Source of the DNA: Candidatus Omnitrophota bacterium
Lineage (GTDB): Bacteria > Omnitrophota > Gorgyraeia > Duberdicusellales > 4484-171
Assembly: GCA_043823745.1 (NCBI GenBank)
Contig: JBDRAN010000028.1
Span: 3,116 to 67,115 of the forward strand
Reading direction: 5' to 3'
Length of the DNA stretch: 64,000 bases
Positions within the stretch are counted from its first letter, which is position 1. Each line of letters begins with the position of its first letter. The notes beneath the pieces are model-generated. The model saw nothing but the letters and a program-made list of their open reading frames with translations. It searched no databases and was not told the DNA's origin. Below are positions 17,596 through 42,928 of this stretch, piece by piece. The position numbers and the translations under genes are program-made.

Positions 17596-17680
17596 GAAGG
17601 CGTATTGAGTACAGAGTATTGAGTATTGTGCAGGGAATAGAAATAATATTTAGTAAACTCAATACCCAATACTCGATACT
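17596..17680. repeat. Palindromic repeat family A, copy A1 (AGTATTGAGTA arms, with the core AAACTCAATACCCAATACTC).
   Basis: The inverted arms GTATTGAGTA...GAGTATTGAGTATTG and CAATACCCAATACTCGATAC are visible directly. The same 20-mer occurs at about 36335 and about 42892. Confidence 0.6.
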
Positions 17681-17785
17681 TTTAATTAACTGTGGCGTAA
17701 GCTAATTCGCGGAAATTCGCGTTCCTCAATTAGCGGCAATTCGCGTTTAGCTACTTACTACTTAAAAATTGCACCAGGAGAGCCC

Positions 17786-18916
17786 TTGAATCTTCGCACC
17801 ATTGTTGTACGAAAAATTGAAGAAATTCCCCCCAAAGACTGGCTGGCTGTATTTCCGCACGTACTTGAAAATTATTATTTCTTTAAAACCCTCGATGAGT
17901 CAAGCATTGATCAGTTTTCTTTATCCTATATTATGGTTTATGACGGCGATACGCCGATAGGAGCCACCTCATGCTTCCTGATGCGTTTCCCCCTGCACAT
18001 AACGGTTACGGGCTTTCTACGAAAGTTCTATGAGGGCCTCAATAAAATTTTTCACGATCTTTTAACCCCGCGGGTATTGATGTGCGGGCTTCCGATGGGC
18101 CAAGGCAGGATCGGTGTCCGCGGCGAGCCGGCTCGCGTTATTGAGGTGATCCGTGTCGCCCTCGATGAGATTGCTTCGAGAGAAAAAGCTTCGTTGATCA
18201 TTTTTAAGGATTTTGTCGCCGCCTATGATTCTTTACTCGCACCTCTGACCAAGCGGGGTTTTTCAAAGATTGAGAGCCTTCCGTCAACGGGAATGAAGAT
18301 ATCCTGGAAGAGTTTTGATGAATATTTGAAGTCACTCAGTCGCGTCTCACGTGATGGCTTAAAAAGAAAATATAAGAAAACCGATGCCGCAGTAAAAATT
18401 GAGTGCGAAGAGCTTGGCGCGCTTGATGAGTCTACCGTCAGCGAAGTGTACGGCCTTTATATGCAAACGTTTATCAAGCTTGATATGGGGTTTGAGAAAT
18501 TGACGCCGGAATTTTTCAGACACGTTTCCGTGAATATGCCGCGCGAGGTAAAATATTTTCTTTGGAGGATAGACGGTAAGCTTGTGACCTTTGCGCTTGG
18601 TTTGGTTTCGGGAGATTATTTTATTGATTATTATCTTGGGTTTGATTACGGCGTGGCTCACGAATACAATTTGTATTTTATCCGGTTTCGTGACTTGCTT
18701 CGGTGGTGTATTCGAAACGGTATTGCTTATTATGAGATGGGCGTGACAACGTATGAGCCTAAGCGTCGCCTTGGTTTTGATTTTATCCGCCTGTATTTTT
18801 ACATGAAGCACCGCAACCGGTTCATCAATTTTTTCTTTGGCTTCTTCAGCCACTTCTTCAAGCCCGAGAACTTTGATTCTGTTTTTGACGATATGGAAGA
18901 AGAGAAGCCATCGTAG
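17786..18916 (+). CDS. GNAT-fold N-acyltransferase of the DUF482/FemAB-like type (COG3146).
   Basis: It is 376 aa, the right length and composition for that family. The start is a TTG. Confidence 0.45.
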   Translation: MNLRTIVVRKIEEIPPKDWLAVFPHVLENYYFFKTLDESSIDQFSLSYIMVYDGDTPIGATSCFLMRFPLHITVTGFLRKFYEGLNKIFHDLLTPRVLMCGLPMGQGRIGVRGEPARVIEVIRVALDEIASREKASLIIFKDFVAAYDSLLAPLTKRGFSKIESLPSTGMKISWKSFDEYLKSLSRVSRDGLKRKYKKTDAAVKIECEELGALDESTVSEVYGLYMQTFIKLDMGFEKLTPEFFRHVSVNMPREVKYFLWRIDGKLVTFALGLVSGDYFIDYYLGFDYGVAHEYNLYFIRFRDLLRWCIRNGIAYYEMGVTTYEPKRRLGFDFIRLYFYMKHRNRFINFFFGFFSHFFKPENFDSVFDDMEEEKPS

Positions 18917-19101
18917 AACGCCCGCCAGCAATAGTTGGCGAGGTCTCGCCCGAAGGCGGATGGGACTCAGCACTCAATACTCAATATGGTTTTTATACTA
19001 TGCGCTAAATCGGGGATACGGATGATAGATTCCTTTGACTTTTCCTGCCGGAGTGCTATAATTCTTTCGCTCGTCAGGTTATCTAACGATGCAATGTACC
19101 C

Positions 19102-20373
19102 ATGACCCATCACGTTACTCCACATAATCATCCTTCCGCGGCCTCCCCTCAGCCAACGGCAACGTTCTATGGCCTCGGTATCGCGCCTAAAATTCTTGAT
19201 ATTCTTGAACGTATCAAGTTTACGATCCCCACGCCTATTCAAACCAAAGCAATTCCTTTGGCAATTCAGGGGCAAGATATCGTTGGTATCGCGCAAACAG
19301 GTACTGGTAAGACCCATGCCTTCGCAATCCCTATGGTGCAGCACTTAGCACAGGGAAAAGGCAAGGGGCTTGTGCTTGCTCCTACGCGTGAGCTTGCGAT
19401 TCAAATTGATGAAGCGTTCAAGCCTCTGGCACAGGCATTTGGTATGTATACGGCCTGTCTCATCGGAGGAGCTCCCATGGAATCCCAAATTGCAGCGCTC
19501 CATAAAAAACCGCGTGTAATTATCGCGACGCCCGGAAGGCTTATTGATCATATTTGGCGGGGGAAGGTGTTGACAGATGATGTGGTAATGCTTGTGCTCG
19601 ATGAAGCGGATCGGATGCTTGATATGGGTTTTGCTCCTCAAATTGAACAGATTTTACGTTTTCTGCCGCGTGAGCGACAGACTATGCTTTTTTCCGCGAC
19701 GATCCCTAAGGAAATCATGATTATCGCGACGCAGCACATGAAGCTTCCCATAAGTGTTGAAGTAGCTCCCTCAGGAACTACCGCGGAGCGCGTTACCCAG
19801 GAGCTCTTTATCGTGCGTAGGGAAGCTAAGCTTAAATTGTTGCATAGCGTGTTGGCGCACTATCATGGTTCCGTTCTTTTATTTTCCCGCACCAAACACG
19901 GCGCCACTAAAATTGCCCGTAGTATCAGGGATATGCGCCACAGCGCCGCTGAAATACATTCCGACAGAACTCTGGGGCAGCGCAGACAGGCGCTTGAGGG
20001 TTTTAAGACAGGTAAATACCGGATACTGGTTGCTACCGATATCGCTGCCCGGGGCATTGATGTAACCGGGATTGAGCTGGTGATTAATTACGATCTCCCC
20101 GACGATGCGCAAAATTACGTGCATCGAATCGGACGCACCGGACGGGCAGGCTGTAAGGGGCATGCGATTTCTTTTGCTACACCTGAACAGAGCGATGAGG
20201 TGCGAGCGATAGAGAATGTTATCAGGGCAAACCTGCCTATTTCCCGTAATCCTGGATCTGCGCCCGAACAATTCAGCGAAGTACCACGCGTGCACCCTGC
20301 ACGGCGTTTTTCTTCCCACAACCGGAACCCACGTCAGAATTTCCACAGGCGTCCCGGTTCGTCGTCTCATTAA
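19102..20373 (+). CDS. DEAD-box ATP-dependent RNA helicase.
   Basis: It has the Q-motif, AQTGTGKT, VLDEADRMLDMGF, SAT and HRIGRTGRAG, plus a basic C-terminal tail. Confidence 0.85.
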   Translation: MTHHVTPHNHPSAASPQPTATFYGLGIAPKILDILERIKFTIPTPIQTKAIPLAIQGQDIVGIAQTGTGKTHAFAIPMVQHLAQGKGKGLVLAPTRELAIQIDEAFKPLAQAFGMYTACLIGGAPMESQIAALHKKPRVIIATPGRLIDHIWRGKVLTDDVVMLVLDEADRMLDMGFAPQIEQILRFLPRERQTMLFSATIPKEIMIIATQHMKLPISVEVAPSGTTAERVTQELFIVRREAKLKLLHSVLAHYHGSVLLFSRTKHGATKIARSIRDMRHSAAEIHSDRTLGQRRQALEGFKTGKYRILVATDIAARGIDVTGIELVINYDLPDDAQNYVHRIGRTGRAGCKGHAISFATPEQSDEVRAIENVIRANLPISRNPGSAPEQFSEVPRVHPARRFSSHNRNPRQNFHRRPGSSSH

Positions 20374-20538
20374 CAAATCGTTACTCCGAATCCCATCAGA
20401 AAAACCGCTTTTTTTAAGGGGTTGTGTCCAGCCCGTCAAAAAAATGGGTTGTGATTTTTTCTTCGGATGGTCCTTTATTTAAATAAAATAAATTGATTTG
20501 TAGTGATAAAAGGCTGGGTACGTAATTTTAATTAGACG

Positions 20539-21387
20539 TTAGGACGCTTTTGCGAATCGTCTGATGTGGTCGATAACTTCTTTGGTGGTAGCTTGGGGGG
20601 TGGAGGAGCCGGAGGTGATGCCGACGCTTGCGGCATGTGTAAACCACGCTTTGCGCAACTGGAGTTTTGAATTTACCCAGTAACTACGTTTATTTAAAGA
20701 TTTTGAGATCTCATGAAGGCGTCGGGTATTAGCGCTGGTTTTTGAGCCGATGATGATCATCACGTCGTTAGCCAGCGGCATGATTCGTATTTCTTCCTGC
20801 TTTAAACGTGTTGGGCGGCATATGGTGTTAATAAATTGCAGGTTTGGCATAAAGCGCTTGAGTGTTTCAATGAGCGCTAGTGTTTCTTTAAGGTTTTGTG
20901 TTGATTGTACTATCGCGCACGCTTTTTTTAAATTTTTAAGCGCGGCTACCGGTATGCGATCCGGGCCATCGAGGACAATAGCTTTACCTTTAAGTTGGCC
21001 GATGATCCCCCTAACTTCATCATGATTTTTGTCCCCGACGACAATGATATCATGACCCTTTTTTTCCATCGTTGCGGCTATGGTGTGTATTTCTTTAACC
21101 ATCGGGCAGGTCGCGTCGATAACGTCATAGTCCAACGTTTGCATGGTGGTGAGAGTTTTTTTGTCAATACCATGGGCGCGGATAAGGAGGGTTTTTCCTG
21201 TACCGACCCTGAGTTTTTTTACTTTTTTTATGCCGGCGTTACGGATTTGCGCGACCACATCTTCATTGTGGACGATATCACCGAGCATATAGATATTTTT
21301 TTTCTGACCGGCAGCTTTTAACGCGATATCAATCGCGCGCTGTACCCCGAAACAAAACCCGCTTGATTTGGCGATGTTTATTTTCAT
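20539..21387 (-). CDS. ispH: 4-hydroxy-3-methylbut-2-enyl diphosphate reductase.
   Basis: It has the SSGFCFGVQRAI N-terminus, DATCPMV and the conserved Cys triad for the 4Fe-4S cluster. Confidence 0.85.
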   Translation of the reverse strand: MKINIAKSSGFCFGVQRAIDIALKAAGQKKNIYMLGDIVHNEDVVAQIRNAGIKKVKKLRVGTGKTLLIRAHGIDKKTLTTMQTLDYDVIDATCPMVKEIHTIAATMEKKGHDIIVVGDKNHDEVRGIIGQLKGKAIVLDGPDRIPVAALKNLKKACAIVQSTQNLKETLALIETLKRFMPNLQFINTICRPTRLKQEEIRIMPLANDVMIIIGSKTSANTRRLHEISKSLNKRSYWVNSKLQLRKAWFTHAASVGITSGSSTPQATTKEVIDHIRRFAKAS

Positions 21388-21403
21388 AGTATAGTAGTTA
21401 ACG

Positions 21404-21600
21404 CTAATTAACGCTAATTGGAAACGCTAATTTACGCGAATCAAACGCGAATTCTCGCGAATAAATTGTCCTACGTCCAAGTGAGCCTGGCGCTCCTGCG
21501 CCGTGCGAACGAACGTCCCACGTCCTACGTCCCACATTCCCACACGTCCCAGCGTACGCTGACGTTCCACGCTTACATTTTATACTGGATATCCTAACAT
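21404..21600. repeat. Short direct-repeat region (AACGCTAATT x3, CGCGAAT x3, GTCCCACGTCC x2) in the divergent ispH/DUF134 promoter region. It is related to the repeats at 17690-17760.
   Basis: The repeats are visible in the sequence. Confidence 0.35.
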
Positions 21601-21694
21601 ACAAACCCGCCAAGCGCAAATGGGGCATGCGATGGGCTTGACAACGCCAGGGTGTCTGGTATTATGAACGCATGTTCATAACCAAGGAGCGTGC

Positions 21695-22006
21695 ATGAGG
21701 CCTAAAAAAACGCGTTGGATCAAATGCGTGCCGCAGGTTCGTTGTTTTAAGCCCCTGTGTAAGTCGTTGCGCCGCGCCGGCAAGGTATACGTAAGCCTTG
21801 ATGAGTTTGAAGCTTTGCGGCTTGCAGACTTAGAGGGCTTGGATCAGGTCAATGCGGCGGCCGCGATGCATGTTTCCCGACCGACTTTTTCCCGTATCGT
21901 TAGCGCGGCGCGTAAAAAAGTCGCCGATGGTTTAGTTAATATCAAAGTTATATGTATCGAGGGAGGCTGTTGCAAGATTAAGCGTAAGAGAAAAGACATA
22001 CGATGA
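21695..22006 (+). CDS. DUF134 (UPF0251) predicted DNA-binding protein.
   Basis: It contains the DUF134 signature LDEFEALRLADLEGLDQVNAAAAMHVSRPTFSRI and a Cys-rich C-terminus. Confidence 0.6.
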   Translation: MRPKKTRWIKCVPQVRCFKPLCKSLRRAGKVYVSLDEFEALRLADLEGLDQVNAAAAMHVSRPTFSRIVSAARKKVADGLVNIKVICIEGGCCKIKRKRKDIR

Positions 22007-22111
22007 AGGAGAGAAGGTTTTTTTGAATATTCGGGGAGTATTCTTAGCAGGTATCTATATAAAAAAAGGCAGGACTTAGGCCGCGATTACCTTAATTACA
22101 GGGGGGGGAAA

Positions 22112-22549
22112 TTGAAGAAACTATTTTTCGCTTTTCTGGTGTCTGTCGCACTAAGTAGCGGCGGCATACTATTTTCACCGTTAGCGCACGCAGCAGATGT
22201 TGCAGAAGGTACTCACGTGGTTGCGTATTATTTTCACGGGATATTTCGTTGTCCGACATGCCACAAGCTTGAGCAGTATTCAAAGGAAGCCATAGAATCT
22301 AACTTCAAAGATGCGCTTTCTTCCGGCACGTTGGAGTTTAAAGTCGTAAACATAGAAGATAAAGGCAATGAACACTACGGAAACGATTACCAGCTTTATA
22401 CTAAATCGCTCATTCTGTCATTATTTAAAGACGGTAGGGAAGTAAAGTGGAAAAACCTTAATAAGATTTGGGAATACGTCGGTAACAAACAAAGATTTAT
22501 TGATTATGTTAAGGGCGGAGTAACCGATTTCCTGAAGGAAGCTAAATGA
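22112..22549 (+). CDS. Secreted thioredoxin-like protein with a CxxC motif.
   Basis: It has a signal peptide and FRCPTCHKLE. The start is TTG. Confidence 0.5.
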   Translation: MKKLFFAFLVSVALSSGGILFSPLAHAADVAEGTHVVAYYFHGIFRCPTCHKLEQYSKEAIESNFKDALSSGTLEFKVVNIEDKGNEHYGNDYQLYTKSLILSLFKDGREVKWKNLNKIWEYVGNKQRFIDYVKGGVTDFLKEAK

Positions 22550-23235
22550 CAGAGATATTAATAGGTTTTGTATCAGCGTTATGGCTAGGAATTCTGACAT
22601 CCATTAGTCCGTGTCCTTTGGCCAGCAATGTGGCTGCAATTTCATTTCTCTCTAAGAAAATAACTCATCCGGCGCTTGTGTTTATTTCCGGTCTTGCCTA
22701 CACGCTCGGTAGAATGCTCTCGTATGCAGTTTTAGGATGGATTATTATCAATTCTTTTTTAAGTGTTCCCCTCATTGCCCAGTTTTTGCAGAAGTATATG
22801 GGGAAAGTCCTGGGGCCGCTTTTAATTCTTACCGGTTTCATTCTATTTGGGTTAATTACTATCCGTTTGCCGAAAGTGTCACTATCGCAGGGGCATCAGA
22901 ATAAACTTGCGGAGTCCGGCGCTTTGGGTGCCTTTTTACTCGGCTTTATTTTTGCTCTGGCTTTTTGTCCTATTTCTGCCGCGTTATACTTCGGGAGCAT
23001 TATCCCCTTAGCGATTAACTGTAAAGGCGGCATTGTTCTGCCGTTTATTTATGGGATAGGCACCGGGTTACCGGTTCTTGTATTTGCTGTTGCCATTGCC
23101 TTGGGGGTGACATCCTTGAGCCATTGGTTTAAAAAAATTGCACGGCTTGAATACTACACTCGTAAAATTACCGGAGCCATATTTATTATTGTGGGTTTGT
23201 ATTATATAGGAATGTATATAGTACGGTTATTTTAA
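22546..23235 (+). CDS. CcdA/DsbD-family transmembrane thiol-disulfide electron transporter.
   Basis: It has six TM helices, with Cys in TM1 (SISPCPLAS) and in TM4 (LAFCPISAA). Confidence 0.65.
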
Positions 23236-23248
23236 TGAGGAGGCACAC

Positions 23249-24457
23249 GTGGAGAGAGCTATGTATAAAAAAAGAAGCTTAAGTTTCTTTGAGAGATATC
23301 TTACGCTGTGGGTTTTTGTATGTATCGCGTTAGGTGTATTGATCGGTACGATTGCTCCGCCGGCGGCGAAATTTCTTGACGGTCTTTCGATTTATGTAAG
23401 TGGTGCGCCGGTTGTTTCTATCCCTATAGCTATTTGTCTTTTTTTTATGATGTATCCCATAATGGTAAAGATTGATTTTGCAGAAGTTATAAAAGCAGGA
23501 AAATCCCCCAAACCGGTATGGTTGACGCTTTTTGTAAATTGGGCAATAAAACCTTTTACCATGTACGGTATTGCGTTTCTGTTTTTGGGGGTCCTATTTA
23601 AAGGGTTCATCGGAGTAGAGGCGGTTGATTTTGTGAAGCTTCCTCCGGGAGCTGACTGGTTGTTGGGCTCCATACACGGCGCAGGAATGGTTGTTATGCA
23701 CGAAGGTTTAAAAATGCTTCAAGTGCCGCTCTGGCGCAGTTATTTTGCCGGGTGTATTCTGCTCGGTATTGCTCCCTGTACCGCTATGGTTTTGGTATGG
23801 GGGTTTCTTGCCAAAGGTAATGACGGCCACACGCTCATTATGGTTGCGATTAATTCGCTGACCATGCTTTTATTGTATGGAGTTTTGGGCGGATTCCTTT
23901 TAGGCGTTGGAAAAATGCCGGTTCCCTGGCAGGCGTTATTATTATCGATCGTTATCTATGTAGCGTTGCCCCTTGTGGCAGGATACTTTTCGCGCAAGCT
24001 GATAGTATCACGTAAAGGCATAGTGTGGTTTAACGAGAAGTTCCTTCATATATTGTCACCCGTTTCAATTATTGCACTTTTATTTACTCTGGTGTTGCTG
24101 TTTTCTTTTAAGGGAGAAATTATTCTTGTGCAGCCGTTAACGATTTTCTGGATAGCGATCCCGCTTTTTATCCAAACGTGTTTAATCTTCGCAATTACCT
24201 ACTGGACGGCAAAGAAATTAAAGTTACGCTACGAGGACGCGGCTCCATCGGCAATGATCGGCGCAAGCAATCACTTTGAAGTTGCTATTGCCACCGCGAC
24301 TATGCTTTTCGGGATTTCATCAGGAGCGGCGCTGGCTACCGTTGTCGGCGTTCTCATTGAAGTACCGGTTATGTTGATGCTTGTTAAATTCTGCTTACAA
24401 ACACAGAATTGGTTTACCCCGTTAGAAAGAAGGCCCCGCCCCCTGTGGGAGGGGTAA
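23249..24457 (+). CDS. acr3: ACR3-family arsenite efflux transporter.
   Basis: It has the [11 protein letters not shown]-terminus and 10 TM helices, which fits the ArsB/Acr3 family. Confidence 0.8.
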
Positions 24458-24466
24458 GATATTCAG

Positions 24467-24498
24467 AGCTCACACGGGGTTTAAAGCCCGTGTGAGCT
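24467..24498 (+). terminator. A 12-bp stem hairpin, AGCTCACACGGG-gtttaaag-CCCGTGTGAGCT, downstream of acr3.
   Basis: The inverted repeat is perfect, but the U-tract is weak (TTTC). Confidence 0.35.
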
Positions 24499-24558
24499 TT
24501 CTAACGGGGTTTACGCGCGAAAATACTTAAGAAAAGGAATAATTCGAAAGGAGGAGTC

Positions 24559-24714
24559 ATGGGAGAGAAAAAAAGTGAAAAGAGCGCCGGTAAGTGTAAA
24601 GGGTTTCTTGGACGCTTGATTGAAAAAATGGATAAAAAACTTCTCGAGAAAGCGAAAAAAAATTCCTGCTGTTGCGGGGATGACCGGACCGGAAAGGATT
24701 CATGCTGCAAGTAG
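24559..24714 (+). CDS. Small Cys-rich protein of 51 aa, [51 protein letters not shown].
   Basis: I translated it by hand. An AGGAGG RBS sits 4 nt upstream. It is below the ORF-track size cut-off. Its 3' end overlaps the start of the next gene. Confidence 0.4.
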
Positions 24715-25661
24715 CGGTTGACCGGCTGACCTATTCATTATTGGGGTTTAACCCGGCATCGCGCCTGGCGCAGGCGTTTAATTTTTTTATCTACGATTCG
24801 GTAAAAATCCTTGCGCTTCTTTTTGTGTTGATCGCAGTTATAGGATTTTTTCGCAGCTTTCTACCCGCGCGTGTTGTGAAAGCATGGCTGGTGCGCGGCA
24901 GGGGTGTTGCAAATTTTCTTGCGTCGGCTTTTGGCGCGGTAACGCCGTTTTGTTCCTGTTCCTCAATTCCTATTTTTCTAAGTTTCCTTGAGGCGGGGGT
25001 ACCCTTGGGTGTTTCCTTTTCGTTTTTGATAACCTCGCCGCTCATTAATGAGTACCTGGTGATTTTGATGGTGAGTTTTTTTGGCCGGAAGATCACCGCC
25101 GCCTATGTCGCAAGCGGTCTTCTCATGGGAACAATACTTGGGATTATTCTTGGAAAAATGAATCTTGAAAAATATCTGGTTGCCGATATCGCTGAATATG
25201 CACACGCCAACATTCGCGAAAGAGATTACCGTGGTTTTAGCGCGCGTGCGATTTTTGGTTTGAATGAAGCTATTTCAATTGTCAAAAAATTGTGGCTTTG
25301 GGTGCTTGCAGGGGTTGCGTTGGGCGCTTTTATTCATAACTATGTCCCTCAAGACGCCATTCAAGCTATTATTGCCAAGACAGGCTTGTTTTCCGTTCCA
25401 ATCGCAACCCTCCTGGGGGTACCGATGTACGCCAGCTGCGCCGCCATTGTTCCGGTCGCCGTAGTGCTCTTTTCCAAGGGTGTGCCTCTGGGCACCGCGC
25501 TTTCCTTTATGATGGCAACTGCCGCTCTTAGCCTTCCTGAAGCGGTCATGTTGCGCCGGGCGATGAAACTTACCCTTATCGCTATCTTTTTCGGGGTTAC
25601 CACGCTGGCGATTATTCTGACCGGTTATCTTTTTAATTTTCTGCAGCATATTTTATCCTAG
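24702..25661 (+). CDS. arsP: DUF318 permease, ArsP-like (organoarsenical efflux).
   Basis: It has 8-10 TM helices and the [10 protein letters not shown] motif characteristic of ArsP. Confidence 0.6.
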
Positions 25662-25761
25662 ACATTTCTTTATAACGGTATTTACTTATGTGTTCGTTCT
25701 GAGTACAATGCTCTCTTGAGTGCGTTGCGTACGTATACTTTTATAACGAAGTTTATGATGT

Positions 25762-30185: not shown

Positions 30186-30313
30186 TAGCGTGGAGCGTAG
30201 AGCGTTTGCTACAATTTAGCGTAGAGCGTGGAGCGTTTAGCGTAGAGCAAAAAATACTTAAAGTTCTACGTTCCCTCTTCCTATACGCTCTCCGCTATCC
30301 GCTCTACGCTTAT
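30186..30313. repeat. Palindromic repeat family B, copy B1 (TAGCGTAGAGCG / CGCTCTACGCT arms).
   Basis: The left arm is TTTAGCGTGGAGCGTAGAGCG...TTTAGCGTAGAGCGTGGAGCGTTTAGCGTAGAGC and the right arm is CGCTCTCCGCTATCCGCTCTACGCT. Confidence 0.6.
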
Positions 30314-33446: not shown

Positions 33447-33454
33447 GGAGCGTT

Positions 33455-33877: not shown

Positions 33878-33950
33878 AAAATTACTAATGACTGAGCATA
33901 AATTACTAAATAAAAATATTTCGTAATTATAATTTAGTAATTAGTAATTT
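33878..33950. repeat. Inverted-repeat family C, copy C1 (AAATTACTAAT ... TTAGTAATTAGTAATT).
   Basis: It is visible in the sequence, and a second copy lies at 39425-39495. Confidence 0.45.
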
Positions 33951-34018
33951 GTTTGGCGCCTTGACGCTTGACACAATGCGTAATGCGTTTTAGGCTATAG
34001 GTATACAGGAGGGCCGAG

Positions 34019-34747: not shown

Positions 34748-35270
34748 CCGCGAACACAGGGACACGAACGAAAATAAAAAATCCCAAATCTCAAACTCAA
34801 AACAAATTCCAATTATCAAAACTATCCGCCGAAGGCGAGACCTCGCCAGCTATCGCTGACGGGCAATGTTCTAAACGGGATCATTTTTTGTCAGGCCCTT
34901 CCTTTAGTCGGAACAGGGAAGCCTACCCTTTAGGGTTATTGGATAATTGGAGTTTGGAACTTATTTATGTTTTTCCGCCCCTTTGGGCGAGATCTCGCCT
35001 ATATACACTAATTAATGTGGCGGAGGTGCTTGCCATTTGGAATTTTTTACACCCCTCGTCCGAGCGTATGCGGCCGCACGTCGTCGGATAACGAGCTTGT
35101 ATCCTGACGTTTTGGTGTCTACCGCCTCACGCTCCCCAAAAGCTCGCTGCTGAGTGCTTAGAGATAGTAGAAAAAAGTCAATAAAAAGTGGAAAACCCCT
35201 CTTTACCGGTTATGGGTAAGTTAGTAATATTTATATACTTAATTATAGTAGCGGATAGTGGTTACTGGAG

Positions 35271-35352
35271 AAAGTATTGAGTATCGAGTACAGAGCATTA
35301 AGTACGTAGTTCTAAAGCGCAACACTCAATACGCAATGCTCAATACGAAAGC
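35271..35352. repeat. Family A-related partial copy A4 (AGTATTGAGTATCGAGTACAGAGC ... ACTCAATACGCAATGCTCAATACG).
   Basis: It is visible in the sequence. Confidence 0.45.
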
Positions 35353-35505
35353 GGAATAGTTTGTGGCGTAAGGCTAACGTGGCGCGCAAGGCGCCATGTA
35401 TTCCAAAAAAATCCGTGGCTTGGGCTTTACGCCACCTGTCTTTATATAGAGATTCCAGAGATCAGGAAAAGATTACCTGTAATCATTTTTTTAATCGCTG
35501 TAATC

Positions 35506-35712
35506 TTGAGCAATATTCATTATACTAAAATGGTACAAGTTCAATGTAAAAAATGTGGCGAGATACGCTTTACTGCCTATCCGCAGATATCGGTATGCGT
35601 TTGTGGCGGGAGATTTAAAGCTATTGATTTCGACCGCCAGGACAAGGAATGCCCTGCGGAGAAAAAATGCCAACACTTGATTGATTCCTTAGAGTACCTA
35701 CGGGAAACGTAA
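35506..35712 (+). CDS. Putative small zinc-ribbon protein (CKKCG...CVCGG).
   Basis: It is a 68-aa ORF with two CxxC/CxC pairs. The RBS is weak, and it is the only ORF in a 1.1 kb gap. Confidence 0.3.
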   Translation: MSNIHYTKMVQVQCKKCGEIRFTAYPQISVCVCGGRFKAIDFDRQDKECPAEKKCQHLIDSLEYLRET

Positions 35713-35884
35713 CACGTAGCCAACCGCTCCCGCGAGTGCAAAAATTCGCTTTCTTTTTGACGCAAGCGTGTATACAATAGAAATATTATATGACTCATGC
35801 GTGGCCGATGATGCGGTTCTTGAGGCAATTCTTTTCCTGTAGGGAGGGGTTGCCTTTTTTTATTGATGGATATGTAATTGCGCA

Positions 35885-36262
35885 ATGAAGAAAACGATCC
35901 TCATAGTCGATGATGATCCGGCGATGCATGAAGTATATGGTGATATGTTTCGGCAATCAGACCGGTACCAGCTTGCGCGCGCCTATAGCGTCGAGGAGGC
36001 TTTGAAGGGATTGAAAACTCGGCGCATTGACCTGATACTGCTTGATATCATCATGGAACCGATACCGGGCTCCTATCTGTATCTTAAAGTAGCGCGGGAT
36101 AAAAAAATACAAAACGAGAAAATACCTATCATCGTCGTCAGCGTTCTTAAAGAACATGAGCTTGGCTCTTTGGGAAAACTCGACAACCTTATATTTTTTG
36201 CCAAGCCCTTTAAGAAAGAGGCGTTGATGGGGAAGATTGAGGAATTGTTGGGAAGCGATTAG
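35885..36262 (+). CDS. Stand-alone single-domain response regulator, paralogous to the one at 33455.
   Basis: It has ILIVDDDPAMHEVYGDMF...LILLDIIMEP. Confidence 0.8.
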   Translation: MKKTILIVDDDPAMHEVYGDMFRQSDRYQLARAYSVEEALKGLKTRRIDLILLDIIMEPIPGSYLYLKVARDKKIQNEKIPIIVVSVLKEHELGSLGKLDNLIFFAKPFKKEALMGKIEELLGSD

Positions 36263-36264
36263 CA

Positions 36265-36368
36265 AAAAGTATTGAGTATCGAGTATAGAGCATCGAGCAT
36301 TGAACAGGGAATAAAAAATGAGTATTTAATAAACTCAATACCCAATACTCACTGCACAATACGTAATA
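36265..36368. repeat. Repeat family A, copy A2.
   Basis: The sequence reads AAAAGTATTGAGTATCGAGTATAGAGCATCGAGC...AAACTCAATACCCAATACTCACTGCACAATACG. Confidence 0.6.
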
Positions 36369-36379
36369 AGGGGGGGAAT

Positions 36380-36745
36380 ATGCTTAAGAAAAAAATATTA
36401 GTTGTTGATGATGAACGTGATTTTCTTAATTTAATACGCATACGGCTTGAGTCAAGCAAATACGAAGTTATTACTGCTTGCGACGGCGTCGATGCGCTCT
36501 TAAAATTTGATGAATGCCCGCCGGACGCAGTCATGCTCGATATTCTCATGCCCAACATGGACGGCCTGGAAGTTTTAAAGAAAATAAGAGCCAAGGACAA
36601 AAATATCCCTATCTTCATCATTACCGCGTTTTCTAATGAGGAGCGACTGAAGCTTGCCAAGGAATTAAATGTTAACGGTTTCATGGATAAAACCGCCGAT
36701 TTAAAAACCGAAATAGAGCATGTGGCGGAAGCGCTCGGGAAATAG
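36380..36745 (+). CDS. Stand-alone single-domain response regulator.
   Basis: It has ILVVDDERDFLNLI...AVMLDILMPNMDG. Its stop codon TAG is the first TAG of the family-B repeat. Confidence 0.8.
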   Translation: MLKKKILVVDDERDFLNLIRIRLESSKYEVITACDGVDALLKFDECPPDAVMLDILMPNMDGLEVLKKIRAKDKNIPIFIITAFSNEERLKLAKELNVNGFMDKTADLKTEIEHVAEALGK

Positions 36746-36774
36746 CGTAGAGCGGATAGCGTAGAGCGTAGAGG
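36742..36774. repeat. Family B left-arm copy, B2 (ATAGCGTAGAGCGGATAGCGTAGAGCGTAGAGG).
   Basis: It is visible in the sequence. Confidence 0.5.
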
Positions 36775-36811
36775 AAGAAAAATATACAGGAATAGCGCAA
36801 AAGGAAAGAAA

Positions 36812-37162
36812 ATGGTAACAAAGAGCTTCAAAGATCTGATAGTTTGGCAGAAAGCATATGCTTTAACTATAGAGATTTATAAGGTGGCTAGTCATTTCCC
36901 TGCTGTTGAGTTGTATGGCTTGCGGCAACAGATGTGTCGTGCCGCAATATCCATACCGTCCAATATCGCTGAAGGATATGGCCGTTCGTATCGTAAGGAA
37001 TATTCACAATTTCTCTCTATAGCCTATGGGTCCTTGTGCGAGCTGGAAACGCAGTATTTATTAGCACTTGAATTTGGTTATCTCAAAAAAACCGAAACGA
37101 TTGAACTTTTAATAAAAGAAGTGGGAAGTATGCTTTATTGTATGATAAATCCCAGAAAATAG
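36812..37162 (+). CDS. Four-helix-bundle protein of the TIGR02436 / 23S rRNA intervening-sequence protein type.
   Basis: It has WQKAYALTIEIYKVASHFP...ISIPSNIAEGYGR...ELETQ, and the RBS is AAAGGAAAG. Confidence 0.75.
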   Translation: MVTKSFKDLIVWQKAYALTIEIYKVASHFPAVELYGLRQQMCRAAISIPSNIAEGYGRSYRKEYSQFLSIAYGSLCELETQYLLALEFGYLKKTETIELLIKEVGSMLYCMINPRK

Positions 37163-37165
37163 GAG

Positions 37166-37252
37166 AAAGCGGAGAGCGTAGAGAAAGAAGGAGCGTAGAA
37201 TTTTACATTATTTATTTTCCCCTCTACGCTATCCGCTCCACGCTCTACGCTA
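37166..37252. repeat. Family B, copy B3: a complete hairpin element directly downstream of the four-helix-bundle gene.
   Basis: The left arm is GCGGAGAGCGTAGAGAAAGAAGGAGCGTAGAA. The loop is TTTTACATTATTTATTTTC. The right arm is CCCTCTACGCTATCCGCTCCACGCTCTACGCTAG. Confidence 0.6.
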
Positions 37253-37268
37253 GAAAAAAGGAGGATCA

Positions 37269-37658
37269 ATGGATGCCAAGAAAAAAGTTTTGATTATTGA
37301 CGATGAAGAAAATTTTACCAAAATCATCAAACTGAACCTTGAGGCAACGGGAAAATACGATGTCTTTGTCGAGAACGATTCAATCCGGGGCTTGAGCAGT
37401 GCAAAAAAAAATATGCCTGACGTGATACTACTCGATATTCTTATGCCTAAGATTGACGGGTTTGAGCTTTTGCGTGCACTTAAGAAAGATATGCCTACAA
37501 TCGCGATCCCGGTAATTATGCTTACCGCGGTAATGGCCGATGAAGCAAAGGCTATGGCCGCCCGGTTGTATGATGAGTCGTATATGGTGAAGCCGGTTGC
37601 CGCCGAGGTGCTTGAGAAAGAAATAGAGAGAGTGTTGGCGCGCCACAGTGGTAATTAG
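37269..37658 (+). CDS. Stand-alone single-domain response regulator.
   Basis: It has VLIIDDEENFTKII...VILLDILMPKIDG. Confidence 0.8.
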   Translation: MDAKKKVLIIDDEENFTKIIKLNLEATGKYDVFVENDSIRGLSSAKKNMPDVILLDILMPKIDGFELLRALKKDMPTIAIPVIMLTAVMADEAKAMAARLYDESYMVKPVAAEVLEKEIERVLARHSGN

Positions 37659-37843
37659 GTCCTTTCATCGTCTATTCTTCGTAGTCCGTTCCCTTCGGGG
37701 ATCCCCTGACGGGGAGGCTTCGCACGGCTCCGCACTCGTTAGTCGTCCGTGACGGAATACGAACGAGTGCATAGCCTGCCGCAGGGCACGGGATACGGAA
37801 GACGGTCGACGAGATAATTATTTATTAAAGAAAGGAGCCTGCT

Positions 37844-39349
37844 ATGTTTGATTCCCAAAGTCTAAGCGCGCAACCCGAAATAATACATGTTTTACTTATT
37901 GAAGATAATCCCGGAGACGTGCGGTTGTTCAAAGAGTTGTTATCGGAGATTCCCGAGACCCCGTTTACCGTAGAATGCGTCAGCCGGCTCGGCGAGGCTT
38001 TAGCGCGCCTTGAAAAAAGGGGTATTGACGTCATTGTCGTTGATCTCGGCCTTCCTGATAGCAAGGGTATTGACACATTTAGGAGTATTTATACTACCGC
38101 GCCTCGCGTGCCGATCGTGGTTGTTACGGGAATGCATGGTCAAGCTTTGAGCGTTTTGGCTCAGGGCGCCCAGGATTATCTTATCAAAGGAAACGTCGAC
38201 GCTGCCATTATATCGCGGACATTGCGATATGCGATTGAGCGTAACAAGCTTAAAACCGCGTATGAGGATTTAGTGAATACGATCACGCATGAGTTGCGCA
38301 TCCCCCTTGGTATTGTACGGGAGGGGGTTTCCCAGATTTGCGATGGCCTGCACGGGGAGATATCCGAAAAAAGCAAAGAATTTCTGGTGCTGGCAATCCA
38401 CAATATCGACAGGCTCAAGCGGCTTATCGATAATCTTTTAGGTGTCGCCAAGCTCGATGCGGGAAAGGTGAAGTTACATAAGTCCATTTTTGATATAACC
38501 GAGCTGGCGCGCGAAATGAGCGCTATTTTTTCAACTCGTGTACAGGGGCGTGACGTGGAGTTGCGTTGTCGTTTTCCCGGCAGCGTCATTAACGTGTATG
38601 CCGATCGGGATAAGATCGTGGAAGTGTTTACCAACCTGATCGGAAACGCGCTTAAGTTTACCGAACGGGGCCTCATCGAGATTGTGCTTCTTGAGAAAGA
38701 GGATTATGTCGCCTGCGCGGTGCGTGATACCGGTTACGGTATTCCTGCGGAACACCTGCCGCATATCTTCGATAAATTTCAGCAATTCTCGCGTAAAGTA
38801 GCTTTCGGGGAAAAAGGTACCGGCCTTGGCCTTGCGATCGTGAAGGGTATTCTTGAGTTGCACGATGAAGCAATCGACGTAGAAAGCGCGATTGGAGCCG
38901 GCACAACGTTTACGTTTACGCTCCATAAGCATCTGGCGCAGCCGCCCTGCAAGGAGCACATTGATGCGTGCATTGCGCAGGCTGGGCTCAAAAACGTGTC
39001 TTTTTCTTTGATCGCGGTCTCGGGCATTAATCTGGAGACATTAAAACACGTTGCGACGCCGGAATCGGCAACGCAAATCATGACGCAGGTACACGCAATA
39101 TTTAAAAGTAGCCTGCGTCGTGCCGAGGATAGCGTTTTTGATTTAACGAGTGAGATACTCGTGCTTTTGATTGACTGTGACAAAGAGGGTGTTGGGGTGG
39201 TTAAGTCCCGGCTTGCCCAACAATTATTCAATTATCTGGCGAGCAACGGATTTTCTGATAGAATATATCTTAAATTTGGCTGTGTCACCTATCCCGATGA
39301 TGCGACCAGCCGGGAAGGGTTACTCGCTGCGGTAATATCGCAACTGTAG
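37844..39349 (+). CDS. Hybrid histidine kinase: REC, HisKA, HATPase_c, and a C-terminal degenerate GGDEF-like domain.
   Basis: The REC domain has VLLIEDNPGDVRLF..VIVVDLGLPD. The H-box is ITHELRIPLG and the G-box is GTGLGLAIVKGI. In the C-terminal roughly 150 aa the GG(D/E)EF motif is replaced by DLTSE, while the RAED (RxxD) I-site is kept. Confidence 0.8.
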   Translation: MFDSQSLSAQPEIIHVLLIEDNPGDVRLFKELLSEIPETPFTVECVSRLGEALARLEKRGIDVIVVDLGLPDSKGIDTFRSIYTTAPRVPIVVVTGMHGQALSVLAQGAQDYLIKGNVDAAIISRTLRYAIERNKLKTAYEDLVNTITHELRIPLGIVREGVSQICDGLHGEISEKSKEFLVLAIHNIDRLKRLIDNLLGVAKLDAGKVKLHKSIFDITELAREMSAIFSTRVQGRDVELRCRFPGSVINVYADRDKIVEVFTNLIGNALKFTERGLIEIVLLEKEDYVACAVRDTGYGIPAEHLPHIFDKFQQFSRKVAFGEKGTGLGLAIVKGILELHDEAIDVESAIGAGTTFTFTLHKHLAQPPCKEHIDACIAQAGLKNVSFSLIAVSGINLETLKHVATPESATQIMTQVHAIFKSSLRRAEDSVFDLTSEILVLLIDCDKEGVGVVKSRLAQQLFNYLASNGFSDRIYLKFGCVTYPDDATSREGLLAAVISQL

Positions 39350-39424
39350 TAACGCAGGGTCGTAGGGTTCAATACGTGACAATGTGCCAAGGCATCAAAG
39401 TGTCAAAGCATCAACGCGTCAGAG

Positions 39425-39495
39425 TAAATTACTAATTGCTAAATTCTAATGACGAACCATTTCCTTTTAGTAATTCGTGCTTAGTAATTAGTGAT
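39425..39495. repeat. Inverted-repeat family C, copy C2.
   Basis: It has AAATTACTAATTGCTAAATTC...TTTTAGTAATTCGTGCTTAGTAATTAGTGATT. Confidence 0.45.
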
Positions 39496-39562
39496 TTTTC
39501 TGCTCTACGTTAGACTTGATACCCTGACACTTTTCCATTGATGTTTTTCAACCAATACCTGA

Positions 39563-40552
39563 ATGGTTAATTTCTTCTACTCCATAAGCGGCTATATCTT
39601 TTTTTCCATCTTTCTTGTTTCTGTATTCTGCCTTTTATGTATCACCCTTTTTATAATTCTGAGACAGCGTAAAAAATTACAAAGTCAGTCGTTGCGCCTT
39701 TTAGCGGTGACCGAAGAAGAGCGTTTTACGCTCGAGCGGGCGCGTCATTTTGTTTACCGCCTCGATACGCGGGGGATTGCGCGCTATGTTTCTGCCTCGA
39801 TTGAAAGGATTACCGGCCGCCTGCCACAGGAGTGGCGTGCGCACTACGCTACCTTTCTTACTGATAATATCTGTAATCAGAAAGCGATCGAATATATTGA
39901 GAAGGCGCTGCGCGCCGGCGAGAAGCCCCCGGTTTTTGAGCTGGAGATGTTTCATAAAAACGGCAGGCGTATTTATCTTGAGATGAGCCTGCAGCCGACG
40001 CGTGAAGTCGGGAACGTAACCGGCATTGCGGGTATCGCGCGGGATATCAGCGAGCGCAAAGAAATGGAGAGGGAGCTGGCGAAAGCTCACGAACTTAGCC
40101 TTTCAATCATCAAAGCGCTTCCTTTCGGGATGGATATTGTAGATTATAACGGTAATATCCTGTATGCGAGCGAAAAGTTTATTGCAGCATTTGGGCATGA
40201 TATTATCGGTAAGAAGTGCTGGATTCTTTATCGGGACGATAAAAAGCAGTGCACCAGCTGTCCCCTGATAAAAGGTGTGGCGGTCGGACAGGTCCTGGTT
40301 TCAGAGGTGGGCGGTGTTTTGGACGGAAAAATATTTGAGATAACGCACGTCGGTCTTGTTTTTAACGGGGCACCCGCGGTACTTGAATTTTTTAACGATA
40401 TTACCGAGCACAAGCGTATTCAAGATGATCTTAATACAAAGGTCCAGGCGCTCCAGCGTTTCCAGAGCGTGACGATTGACCGTGAGTTAAAAATGAAAGA
40501 GCTTAAAGCGCGGATTGCCGAGCTTGAGGAGAAACTAGAAAAATATACATAG
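39563..40552 (+). CDS. Membrane-anchored tandem-PAS protein with a C-terminal coiled coil and no output domain.
   Basis: It has an N-terminal TM helix, two PAS-like segments and a final heptad-rich tail. Its stop TAG lies inside a family-B repeat. Confidence 0.65.
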   Translation: MVNFFYSISGYIFFSIFLVSVFCLLCITLFIILRQRKKLQSQSLRLLAVTEEERFTLERARHFVYRLDTRGIARYVSASIERITGRLPQEWRAHYATFLTDNICNQKAIEYIEKALRAGEKPPVFELEMFHKNGRRIYLEMSLQPTREVGNVTGIAGIARDISERKEMERELAKAHELSLSIIKALPFGMDIVDYNGNILYASEKFIAAFGHDIIGKKCWILYRDDKKQCTSCPLIKGVAVGQVLVSEVGGVLDGKIFEITHVGLVFNGAPAVLEFFNDITEHKRIQDDLNTKVQALQRFQSVTIDRELKMKELKARIAELEEKLEKYT

Positions 40553-40722
40553 CGTAGAGTCCCCTTTGGGGGAGGCTTCGCACCGTATAGCGTAGAGCGT
40601 AGAGGAAGAGAGGGTAAGTGTGAGAGGCGTAGTTTTAGAAATTTTTCTTTATTTTCTACTCTACGCTAAACGCTCCACGCTCTACGCTAAATCGTAGCAA
40701 ACGTTCTACGCTCCACGCTAGG
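40550..40722. repeat. Family B, copy B4: a long hairpin element that includes the 34-mer GTCCCCTTTGGGGGAGGCTTCGCACCGTATAGCG.
   Basis: The left arm is TAGCGTAGAGCGTAGAGGAAG. The loop is AT-rich. The right arm is ACTCTACGCTAAACGCTCCACGCTCTACGCTAAATCGTAGCAAACGTTCTACGCTCCACGCTA. Confidence 0.6.
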
Positions 40723-40739
40723 ATATGGATAACTAAATT

Positions 40740-42818
40740 ATGCTTAACCTAAAATTCGGAATCAGGCAGAAAGTAATCGTGATGATTTTTATTTCTGTTT
40801 TTGCCGCGGTTATCCTGACGGCAGGATTTTATTACTTTCTTGGGTACCGGTTCCAGGAGAAGGTTATGAGCGCGCAGTATTACCGTAGCGCCCAGATTCT
40901 TTCGCAAGCGTTAGGGAAAATGTTTAACGACCAGATGCAGTTTATACGAGTACAGGTGGCTACGTACCCATGGAACGACGACTTGGTTCGGGTCAATGCG
41001 CAGTATCAGGGTCGCGCGCAGGAATCGATTGTTGCCGAGCTTATGGAGAAAGATCAACATTGGATAGCGGATCAAGGCCAGGATGGAATCATCCGGCAAT
41101 ATTTGCAAAATCCCGCAAGCGAAAAGCTTGTGCGCCTGGTAGCTGCCGACCCTAAAATTGCGGAAATCTTTATTACCGATGCGTACGGTGGCCTAGTGGC
41201 TGCCTCGGGAAGAACTTCAGATTTTTATCAGGCGGACGAACAGTGGTGGCAGGACGGCTATGCCGGAGGAGCCGGGCGCGATTGCGTCGGTGACGTCGAG
41301 TATGACGCGTCCGCGAAGACCTTGAGTATTCCGTTTATAACGCCGGTGCGCGATGAAAAGGGGAACGTCTCAGGGGTTTGCAAGGCAGTGCTTAACCTTG
41401 AGGCGTTCCTTGAACCCCTCTCAAGCCTTTCGATCGGAAAAACCGGTCACGCCGCGTTGCTCAACGCAAACGGGCAGATCATTTTTCATCAGGGTATTAC
41501 CCCGTTAAGCCGGTTATTTTCCGACCGGAAAGATTTCAGCGTTTTCCTTGCGGAGCAACAAAAGTTCTCAATAGCGCCCTTGTCTCACGAGCAGAACGAA
41601 CGAAGGTTTTTCGTTAGCGTGCCTTTTATCTCGTCGTTATTCGCGGACAAACAAATGCGGTGGTATGTAGTGATTGAGCAGGCCGCGTCTGAGGTATTTG
41701 CACCGCTTGTTGAGCTGAACATCAAGCTTATGGCTGTTGCCGGGGTTACGCTTATTCTGATGCTGCCTTTGGGGTTTTTATTGGGGGGTGTTTTTTCCCG
41801 GCCTATCCTCGCTCTCCATAAGGCGATCACTAAAATTACCGAAGGTGTATGGGATTATGCGGTTGAGATTAAAAGCGGAGACGAGGTTGAACAATTTGCC
41901 GAAGCGTTTAAGAAAATGATTTTAACGACACGTAATAAACAGCGGGAGCTGATTGCCGCAAAAAATGAGCTTGAAGCGTTGGCAAAAAGCCTTGAAGATA
42001 AGGTCCGGGAGCGTACGGGGGAGCTTGAGCGTGTTAATAAGGCGAGCCTTAATATTCTTGAAGATCTGACCGAAGCGAAAAGAAATTTAAGCAAGTATTC
42101 CAAGGATCTTAAGGAAGCGATCATTGTTAAGTCAGACTTTACGTCTATGGTTTCTCATGAGTTACGCACGCCCCTGACCGCGATCAAAGAAGGTATTTCG
42201 ATCGTGCTTGACGGCACAACCGGGCAGCTCAACAAAGACCAGGAGAACTTTCTTTCGATAGCCAAAAGCAATGTTGACCGCCTCACGCGGCTCATTAACG
42301 ACATTCTTGATTTTCAGAAGCTCGAGGCGGGTAAATTAGAGTTTACGATGAAGGTGTATGACATAACCGAAGTTCTTTGGGAAGTTCAGAATACGATGGA
42401 ATCGGCGATTAAGGCGAAAAAGCTTACCTTTGCCTCTGAATTCCCCGGGAATCTGCCTGAATTGACCTTCGATCGCGATAGAATCATTCAGGTGATCATG
42501 AACCTTATTACCAACGCATGTAAGTTTACCGAACGCGGCGGCATTATCTTGCGCGCAGAACTGTTGGGTGAGTATGTTCGGGTATGCGTCGAGGATACCG
42601 GTTGTGGTGTTTCCGAGGGGGATATCCCTAAGCTTTTTCAGAAATTTACTCAACTGGAGACCGGTGTCAGCAGAAAAGTCGGCGGCACCGGGCTTGGCCT
42701 TGCGATCTCAAAACAAATTATCGACGCGCACGGCGGAAAAATTTGGCTTGAATCGGTAGCCGGCAAAGGCTCGAAGTTTTATTTTACCTTACCGATTAAG
42801 AAAGCGGATAGCGTATAG
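40740..42818 (+). CDS. Sensor histidine kinase with a periplasmic Cache-like domain, then HAMP, HisKA and HATPase_c.
   Basis: It has two TM helices flanking a periplasmic domain of about 280 aa. The H-box is VSHELRTPLTAIKEG and the G-box is GTGLGLAISKQII. It ends in KADSV, which is encoded by the repeat. Confidence 0.85.
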   Translation: MLNLKFGIRQKVIVMIFISVFAAVILTAGFYYFLGYRFQEKVMSAQYYRSAQILSQALGKMFNDQMQFIRVQVATYPWNDDLVRVNAQYQGRAQESIVAELMEKDQHWIADQGQDGIIRQYLQNPASEKLVRLVAADPKIAEIFITDAYGGLVAASGRTSDFYQADEQWWQDGYAGGAGRDCVGDVEYDASAKTLSIPFITPVRDEKGNVSGVCKAVLNLEAFLEPLSSLSIGKTGHAALLNANGQIIFHQGITPLSRLFSDRKDFSVFLAEQQKFSIAPLSHEQNERRFFVSVPFISSLFADKQMRWYVVIEQAASEVFAPLVELNIKLMAVAGVTLILMLPLGFLLGGVFSRPILALHKAITKITEGVWDYAVEIKSGDEVEQFAEAFKKMILTTRNKQRELIAAKNELEALAKSLEDKVRERTGELERVNKASLNILEDLTEAKRNLSKYSKDLKEAIIVKSDFTSMVSHELRTPLTAIKEGISIVLDGTTGQLNKDQENFLSIAKSNVDRLTRLINDILDFQKLEAGKLEFTMKVYDITEVLWEVQNTMESAIKAKKLTFASEFPGNLPELTFDRDRIIQVIMNLITNACKFTERGGIILRAELLGEYVRVCVEDTGCGVSEGDIPKLFQKFTQLETGVSRKVGGTGLGLAISKQIIDAHGGKIWLESVAGKGSKFYFTLPIKKADSV

Positions 42819-42834
42819 CGATTAGCGGATAGCA

Positions 42835-42928
42835 GGAAGTATTGGGTATAGAGTACAGAGTATTGAGTAGAGAATGAAAAATAAGGATTTATAAACTCAA
42901 TACCCAATACTCGTACACAATACGAACG
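42835..42928. repeat. Repeat family A, copy A3.
   Basis: It has GGAAGTATTGGGTATAGAGTACAGAGTATTGAGTAGAG...AAACTCAATACCCAATACTCGTACACAATACG. Confidence 0.6.

Follow-up and report, generated by a model that had tools for sequence, protein, structure and literature searches.

Which kind of element recurs, almost unchanged, as a short palindrome between otherwise unrelated bacterial genes? The question is raised by a stretch of 64,000 nucleotides from a Candidatus Omnitrophota genome (assembly GCA_043823745.1, contig JBDRAN010000028.1, positions 3,116 to 67,115 of the forward strand), referred to here as the window, in which a first-pass annotation had pointed out a dispersed, palindromic and extragenic repeat with an identical 20-mer in at least three copies. 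We analysed this repeat, named family A, together with its relatives in other genomes and the other repeats of the window; the copy counts given for family A cover the 64-kb window of the Omnitrophota genome. Family A is a new Omnitrophota family of hairpins with heptamer arms and, to our knowledge, the first such case in this phylum. We estimate at roughly 60% the probability that it is a member, devoid of an open reading frame (ORF), of a widespread class of inserted hairpins with stems of about 4-5 tandem heptamers, as found around genes of the Pfam family PF05635.

Four copies of family A are dispersed between tandem genes

The 20-mer AAACTCAATACCCAATACTC was found exactly at 17655-17674, 36331-36350 and 42893-42912, always on the + strand, and a diverged version with 3 mismatches was found at 35322-35341, in a fourth copy; the chance expectation, from 100 dinucleotide-preserving shuffles, was 0 matches. 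Among the three exact copies, the identity reaches the 21-mer TAAACTCAATACCCAATACTC. A covariance model built from the four copies recovered only those four, on the + strand of the window and with 84-92 bits, and no fifth copy was detected with it in the 64 kb.

17596..17684, + strand: family A copy A1, covariance model 91.7 bits
35268..35350, + strand: family A copy A2, diverged, covariance model 83.5 bits
36262..36368, + strand: family A copy A3, covariance model 89.8 bits
42833..42927, + strand: family A copy A4, covariance model 90.7 bits, arm pair 94%
18962..18988, + strand: solo right-arm-type array (ACTCAGC ACTCAAT ACTCAAT) of 3 units, without left arm

In A1, the left arm (17602-17628) is made of (GTATTGA/GTACAGA)x4 and is followed by a loop at about 17629-17653 and by the 21-mer (17654-17674), which opens the right arm. 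The left arm of A2 is 96% identical to that of A3 over 28 nt, with a right arm corresponding to ACACTCAATACGCAATGCTCAATACG and a loop that differs from those of the other copies. A3 begins 3 nt past the stop codon of a response-regulator gene (35885-36262) and ends about 12 nt upstream of the start of another one (36380-36745), and A4 adjoins, nested behind it, the left array (42800-42833) of a second repeat family, family B, described below. The solo array had been taken for a partial copy (18961-18990); with only three units of right-arm type and no partner arm, it was not retained as such.

All four copies are located between same-strand genes, so that the earlier description of their sites as convergent or tandem holds for the tandem part and not for the convergent one. 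The flanks are unrelated among the four copies and the loops are conserved, with 20/25 identical positions between A1 and A3 and 15/17 between A1 and A4. A1 lies in an unrelated EamA/FemAB context and yet has the exact 21-mer and the loop motif in common with other copies. The likeness is mosaic, left arms being common to A2 and A3 and right arms to A1, A3 and A4, which suggests recombination between copies. These alignments show that the copies are homologous to one another and dispersed to at least four same-strand intergenic sites. The palindromic family proposed at first is thus confirmed by its unrelated flanks, its conserved loops and the presence of A1 in inserted DNA (see below).

A second assembly, with 16 single-nucleotide polymorphisms (SNPs) relative to the window over 4.2 kb, has A1 in identical form, and A4 is present on a 10.6-kb contig (JAHJZK010000317.1) of the metagenome-assembled genome (MAG) GCA_018827245.1, 100% identical to the window. 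The copies are therefore no assembly artefacts, in agreement with the first opinion. Between the window and the MAG contig JAHJZK010000040.1, 15 of the 16 SNPs fall at 14674-15257 in one gene (14616-15332) with no Pfam match.

The arms are tandem heptamers able to form a stem

Both arms of family A are composed of tandem heptamers, (GAGTAnn)n and (nnTACTC)n, a make-up that was absent from the first-pass annotation, as were the other heptamer flavours of the window. The coding-strand units are GAGTATT, GAGTACA, GAGTATC and GAGCATC, with their complement in the opposite arm, and each heptamer combines a constant core with variable positions. Tandem Repeats Finder (TRF) detected period-7 arrays in both arms of every copy, with 3.4-5.1 units per arm (left arms at 17602-17628, 36268-36297 and 42838-42873), and our own period-7 scan was concordant. 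The arm pairs were recognized by a repeat finder as inverted repeats of 17-23 nt, 77-94% complementary and 26-40 nt apart. Folding bore out the palindromic nature of the copies, the four + strand RNAs reaching -24.1, -19.8, -18.6 and -27.5 kcal/mol, with z-scores of -4.6, -1.5, -2.3 and -6.1, respectively (ranges: -18.6 to -27.5 kcal/mol and -1.5 to -6.1). Folds of the minus strand are no weaker than those of the plus strand. No match at the gathering score was obtained in Rfam for family A, the sole match of the window being an nhaA-I riboswitch at 57764-57820.

Stable hairpins placed just past stop codons might be factor-independent terminators or attenuators between genes, and in one viral contig of IMG/VR (L098, 3980-4125) A-flavour arms do flank a canonical rho-independent terminator. 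The family A stems are, however, AT-rich, with neither a GC-rich stem nor a U tract, no A copy was picked up by the terminator scan, and about 12 nt separate A3 from the following start codon, in what is apparently an operon. We consider a terminator role to be the least likely of the explanations examined here. The same viral contig has another terminator, with a solo right arm behind it (10257-10337).

A1 lies in DNA that relatives lack

In two relatives, the EamA-EamA-FemAB gene order is kept with a gap of 4-6 bp where the window has a spacer of 239 bp, which holds A1 and other repeat modules; the C-terminus of EamA and the N-terminus of FemAB are conserved. Period-7 arrays number 0 in 54 kb of the relatives vs 22 in the 64-kb window. 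Protein names and matches assign the window to Candidatus Omnitrophota, and the closest orthologues of a flanking gene are only about 60% identical. This comparison of gene junctions shows that at least one family A copy occupies DNA that relatives do not have and, since the element is missing at the same junction, family A is not a conserved regulatory feature.

Two further repeats were observed close to A1. The motif TGTGGCGTAAG is located within about 10-15 nt past A1 and A2 (17691-17701 and 35362-35372), and a decamer array of AATTCGCG type follows A1 (17700-17750).

Inverted heptamer arrays enclose PF05635 genes

The window contains a gene enclosed by arrays of the same architecture, of family B flavour.

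36742..37252, + strand: PF05635 cassette, with an AGCGTAG-type left array (36742-36775), the gene (36812-37162) and an inner B hairpin with the right array (37222-37252)

The gene product belongs to PF05635, the four-helix-bundle "23S rRNA intervening-sequence protein" (E=2.3e-36), and is related to PDB entry 2GSC (E=1e-19), which has five chains. The inverted B arrays around it are Watson-Crick paired at 27/32 positions. An identical protein is encoded on a 136-kb contig, and more than 7,700 homologues were found at E<=1e-10.

We surveyed 129 loci of homologues, 71 from metagenomes, 14 from plasmids and 44 from viral contigs. Inverted tandem-heptamer arrays enclose the PF05635 gene in most of them, with lineage-specific flavours, and a purine-rich arm placed first on the sense strand is a feature that we derived from the 129 loci. 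Five units is the commonest arm length next to PF05635 genes. For the metagenomes, 80 close homologues were fetched and the counts were restricted to the 71 flanked on each side by 120 nt or more; a period-7 array was present within 220 nt upstream in 56/71, downstream in 59/71 and on both sides in 47/71. Arrays had a density of 4.29/kb up to 220 nt from the gene and of 0.44/kb beyond. The upstream and downstream flanks form inverted repeats, with a median score of 32 vs 17 for the direct control and 20 for the shuffled one, and scores of at least 40 were reached by 19 loci vs 2 in the direct and 0 in the shuffled control. Metagenome cassettes carry the B flavour of the window.

In 14/14 of the plasmid homologues (Nostoc, Calothrix, Anabaena, Stanieria, Geminocystis, Leptolyngbya, Picosynechococcus, Riemerella, Gemmatirosa and Azospirillum), arrays of heptamers are present at the gene, mostly as inverted pairs and in flavours other than B, among them GGGAACA, AGGGTGT, AGGTGAC, AGGAGTC, AGGGCAG, AGGAGAT and AAGGTTY. 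In the viral contigs, an array was present upstream in 33/44, downstream in 25/44 and on both sides in 23/44, and one flavour, GAGTAGG/CCTACTC, has the GAGTA core in common with family A. The Azospirillum lipoferum locus (L113) lies inside a large-subunit rRNA gene (Rfam RF02541, 604 bits) and is a classical 23S intervening sequence (IVS), the stem arms of which are CAGAGGA/CGGATGA heptamers. Other cassettes sit precisely in short operon junctions (for example leuC|leuD, cas10|cmr3 and cas6|cas4); at the leuC|leuD junction of another Omnitrophota MAG, the left arm contains the stop codon of leuC and the right arm is directly followed by the ATG of leuD.

IVS elements have stems of about 28 bp cut by RNase III and an ORF for the homopentameric protein S23p, and are seen as horizontally acquired selfish elements (PMC4990558). 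IVS/PF05635 cassettes and family A have in common the inverted terminal arms, a stem of at least 20 bp, the tandem heptamers with the purine-rich arm first, and an inserted, sporadic distribution. Unlike these cassettes, family A has no PF05635 ORF in its loops of 26-40 nt and is located outside rRNA genes, between protein-coding genes of a window devoid of rRNA, classical IVS elements being in helix 25 or 45 of the 23S rRNA. A literature search found no paper linking heptamer arrays with PF05635 or IVS elements, and we know of none stating that the stems of IVS or PF05635 elements are heptamer arrays. We regard this association as a more interesting result than family A itself.

The first-pass annotation had called family A REP/MITE-like, that is, close to repetitive extragenic palindromic (REP) sequences or to MITEs (miniature inverted-repeat transposable elements). 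REP sequences, bacterial interspersed mosaic elements (BIMEs) and REP doublets forming hairpins (REPINs) are, like family A, extragenic imperfect palindromes between co-transcribed genes. REPINs are widespread (PMC3116915), and an element of this type, dispersed in the same orientation as the genes, could be moved in trans by a REP-associated tyrosine transposase (RAYT, IS200/IS605-like) encoded elsewhere in the genome. The arms of family A are, in contrast, arrays of 3-5 heptamers and not single REP sequences of 20-40 nt, its loop has 26-40 nt and there are no REP doublets. Pfam scans of the about 60 ORFs of the window revealed neither a RAYT or other Y1 transposase nor any transposase, reverse transcriptase or integrase, and the gene inside such arms, here and elsewhere, is PF05635 and not a RAYT gene; a REP/REPIN origin is thus very unlikely in our view. 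MITEs resemble family A in being small, non-coding and palindromic and possibly internal-deletion derivatives of a gene-carrying parent, but family A lacks target-site duplications, it has no terminal repeats of transposase type or separate from the heptamer arms, and an insertion sequence related to it is missing from the window. In the strict sense, the REP/MITE label was not supported.

Family B has ORF-less hairpins besides its cassette

Family B, with units such as AGCGTAG, AGCGGAT and similar ones, forms five ORF-less hairpins with conserved loops in the window. Its other members than the cassette proper are the following.

30187..30311, strand not assigned: family B ORF-less hairpin, opposite in orientation to the remaining B copies, with the exact reverse complement of the 31-mer at 30217-30247
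40584..40689, + strand: family B ORF-less hairpin, the right arm of which is the exact 31-mer CTCTACGCTAAACGCTCCACGCTCTACGCTA
42800..42833, + strand: family B left array over the last six codons and stop (KADSV*) of the histidine-kinase gene 40740-42818
43028..43102, + strand: degenerate family B hairpin, with a loop about 85% identical (by eye) to that of the 37163-37252 copy
43520..43632, + strand: family B ORF-less hairpin, the right arm of which is the exact 31-mer

The 31-mer is found unchanged at 40659 and at 43602; since its exact reverse complement lies at 30217, family B occurs in both orientations. A stretch of 71 nt shared by B copies is 94% identical. The left array of the 43520..43632 hairpin encodes the final codons KADSV* of the response-regulator gene 43135-43539, so that two unrelated genes have ends (42801-42818 and 43522-43539) encoded by the B array AAAGCGGATAGCGT(A/T)TAG. 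Two other stop codons (36743-36745 and 40550-40552) are also inside the first B heptamer. The genes upstream thus owe C-termini and stop codons to B arrays. We had considered that every flavour might have stops in all three frames, which is true for A, B and family C of the window (see below) and fails for several cyanobacterial flavours.

Period-7 arrays occur in 14/34 of the window spacers of at least 40 bp, in flavours including AGCGTAG, TAATTAC and more, and 21/24 of the arrays are intergenic. Family A might be a purely local product, heptamer microsatellites having arisen by polymerase slippage and template switching and having been carried along by segmental duplication of the two-component paralogues, with no mobility of an element. 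An over-representation of heptameric simple repeats is described for many bacteria, with slippage as the proposed cause (PMC4692102), unit number and variable positions differ between orthologous arrays, and A2, A3 and A4 are upstream of paralogous response-regulator genes, clustered with duplicated gene segments. On the other hand, A1 carries the exact 21-mer and the loop motif in its unrelated EamA/FemAB context, the 21-mer is 100% identical vs about 65-75% for the neighbouring paralogous genes, the loops, which are not repetitive, are conserved, and B copies occur in both orientations with 94% identity over 71 nt. A purely local origin, the likeliest of the competing explanations, remains unlikely to us.

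Proposed relationship of family A to the cassettes

The apparent specificity of family A to this genome, suggested at first, did not hold. In a GTDB scan, the genomes of 11 unrelated species (Planctomycetia, Pedobacter, Gillisia, Ignavibacteria, Melainabacteria and others) carried the exact 20-mer, which belongs in the majority of them to a CTCAATA/CCCAATA heptamer array or hairpin, and A-flavour arrays are present in 7 of the 80 metagenome contigs bearing PF05635. The combination of loop and 21-mer gave 0 matches in JGI metagenomes, so the particular family A may be lineage-restricted. Two scans of viral contigs for A hairpins gave 0 and 1 matches. In a Melainabacteria MAG (L012, 3900-3939), a GAGTATT/CTCAATA array is apparently inside an ORF.

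A and B arrays are found side by side at A4 of the window and in contigs L049, L057, L067 and L068, and the family A model gave weak matches of 19-35 bits on B hairpins. In other contigs, the loops of ORF-less B hairpins resemble fused 5' and 3' ORF ends, the pattern expected of internal-deletion derivatives. On the + strand of the window, the motif AGGGAATA is confined to the loops of A1 and A3; of its 13 occurrences in PF05635 loci, 8 are at the ribosome-binding site of the gene. Its reading as a loop relic of a PF05635 gene is suggestive only. By BLAST of the family A loops against PF05635 loci, no loop match was significant and the arms alone matched.

Several points weigh against the assignment of family A to the class of PF05635-type hairpins. 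The loop-relic argument uses a short motif spotted after the fact. Neither tblastn nor a profile search found a PF05635 gene within 8 kb of the A-flavour arrays in the 11 genomes, and among the loci examined none had a PF05635 gene flanked by the exact GAGTATT flavour of family A. No direct repeats were seen as target-site duplications at the borders of A1-A4, and our survey of family A spans only 64 kb of the genome. At the RNA level, no compensatory covariation was present among the four copies and, in 53 PF05635 cassettes, the arm mismatches are mostly transversions (200), at variable positions, and G-U shows no bias between strands (35 vs 34). Since this bias is absent and transversions prevail, RNA-level selection on the stem is not demonstrated. 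The comparison of G-U and A-C mismatches as a means to recognize a functional RNA strand was dropped as uninformative, given the lack of bias in the 53 cassettes.

If family A does belong to this class, as we favour, its heptamers would follow the scheme of a constant core with 2-3 variable positions, the purine-rich arm being on the coding strand and the complement opposite. Family A would then have been spread, or homogenised by recombination, through the process that spreads PF05635 cassettes. Co-transcribed with the flanking genes, it would form an imperfect stem of 20-30 bp, and the predicted stem may act in an IVS-like manner, by analogy with the elements of the 23S rRNA, as an RNase III or other processing site or as a structure stabilising 3' ends within the operon. 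For the host, its overall effect would probably be neutral or selfish and not regulatory.

A cis-regulatory site was nevertheless considered, in which the arrays would bind a response regulator, an RNA binder of cold-shock or S1 type, or the PF05635 pentamer, and the hairpin would control the downstream response-regulator genes. The right-arm 21-mer is indeed perfectly conserved while the left arms are variable, and three copies are upstream of response-regulator genes. Such a role was proposed for TAACTGA heptamers, CspB binding one heptamer per molecule (PMC4679880), and the five units commonest in arms at PF05635 genes equal the subunits of the protein pentamer (five chains in 2GSC; PMC4990558). 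However, A1 is upstream of an unrelated acyltransferase gene, many unrelated flavours have the same architecture, and no consistent promoter or terminator consensus was found at the family A copies, which makes a regulatory site quite unlikely.

Other heptamer repeats are similar to family A in several respects. The TAACTGA heptamers of Beggiatoaceae, Cyanobacteria and Bacteroidetes have no known mechanism (PMC4679880), in Xanthomonas, GGGAATC arrays form 70-75 inverted pairs (PMC4692102), and the short tandemly repeated repetitive sequences (STRRs) were originally defined in heterocystous cyanobacteria, a host group distinct from the Candidatus Omnitrophota of family A. Like family A, these are intergenic arrays of 7-nt units, often in inverted pairs; they sometimes overlap ORF ends, vary in length between relatives and are patchy in their phyletic distribution (PMC4679880). 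They were described as simple repeats, whereas family A is a dispersed element in which a non-repetitive loop is conserved and a 21-mer exactly so. It is possible, although we would lean against it, that heptamer-array hairpins constitute one class, comprising family A, the STRRs of cyanobacteria, the Xanthomonas pairs of inverted GGGAATC arrays and perhaps the TAACTGA arrays, all being stems or ORF-less derivatives of a mobile PF05635 cassette, each subunit of the pentamer reading one heptamer and family A being non-autonomous and maintained or moved in trans. The reading of one heptamer per subunit, if true, would account for the 7-nt period as well as for the modal length of the arms.

On its own, family A amounts to a modest new family of repeats from a phylum about which little is known. 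If the link to PF05635 holds, it would give a common and testable account of the over-representation of heptamers, of STRR-type arrays, of the origin and spread of 23S IVS elements and of the function of PF05635. Such elements also have practical consequences: located within operons, they provide the genes upstream with stop codons, cause breaks in assemblies and mislead gene calling, and may in addition split polycistronic mRNAs.

Other repeats and features of the window

A third heptamer family, family C, was observed in two copies.

33879..33950, strand not assigned: family C hairpin (AATTACT/TAGTAAT heptamers)
39426..39493, strand not assigned: family C hairpin, second copy

A TAATTAG array akin to family C is present in an Ignavibacteria locus (L008, 2105-2151), which also has a GAGTATT array of 117 nt. 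A module of about 24 nt, TCCCCTTTGGGGGAGGCTTCGCAC, made of a small GC hairpin and GGCTTCGCAC, is located at 37702-37725, 40560-40583, 43002-43025 and 57621-57644, embedded in or beside AGCGTAG arrays. Elhai et al. reportedly described, in 2008, the small dispersed repeats (SDR) of Nostoc as hairpin modules of very small size that lie within arrays of tandem heptamers. The module TCCCCTTTGGGGGAGGCTTCGCAC in B arrays resembles these Nostoc SDR, whereas family A is the heptamer hairpin itself and not an insert of 21-27 nt.

A decamer array related to the one past A1, TTAACGCTAA/TTACGCGAA, lies at 21398-21462, a direct repeat with a spacing of 76 nt and containing TTCGGGGCGTCCCGCACCTAA at 16610-16714, and a tandem repeat of 28 nt, GTAAGGGGCTGCACACCAGTGCGTCCCG, in 2.4 copies at 57551-57615. 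A promoter-like site (42940-42967, GTGATA-16-TATAAT with TG before) was noticed between A4 and the next B hairpin, upstream of the gene 43135-43539. The nhaA-I riboswitch mentioned above (Rfam RF03057, 55.8 bits) is upstream of the gene 57894-59402, which codes for a diadenylate cyclase (DAC) with a YbbR domain and not for an ion transporter.

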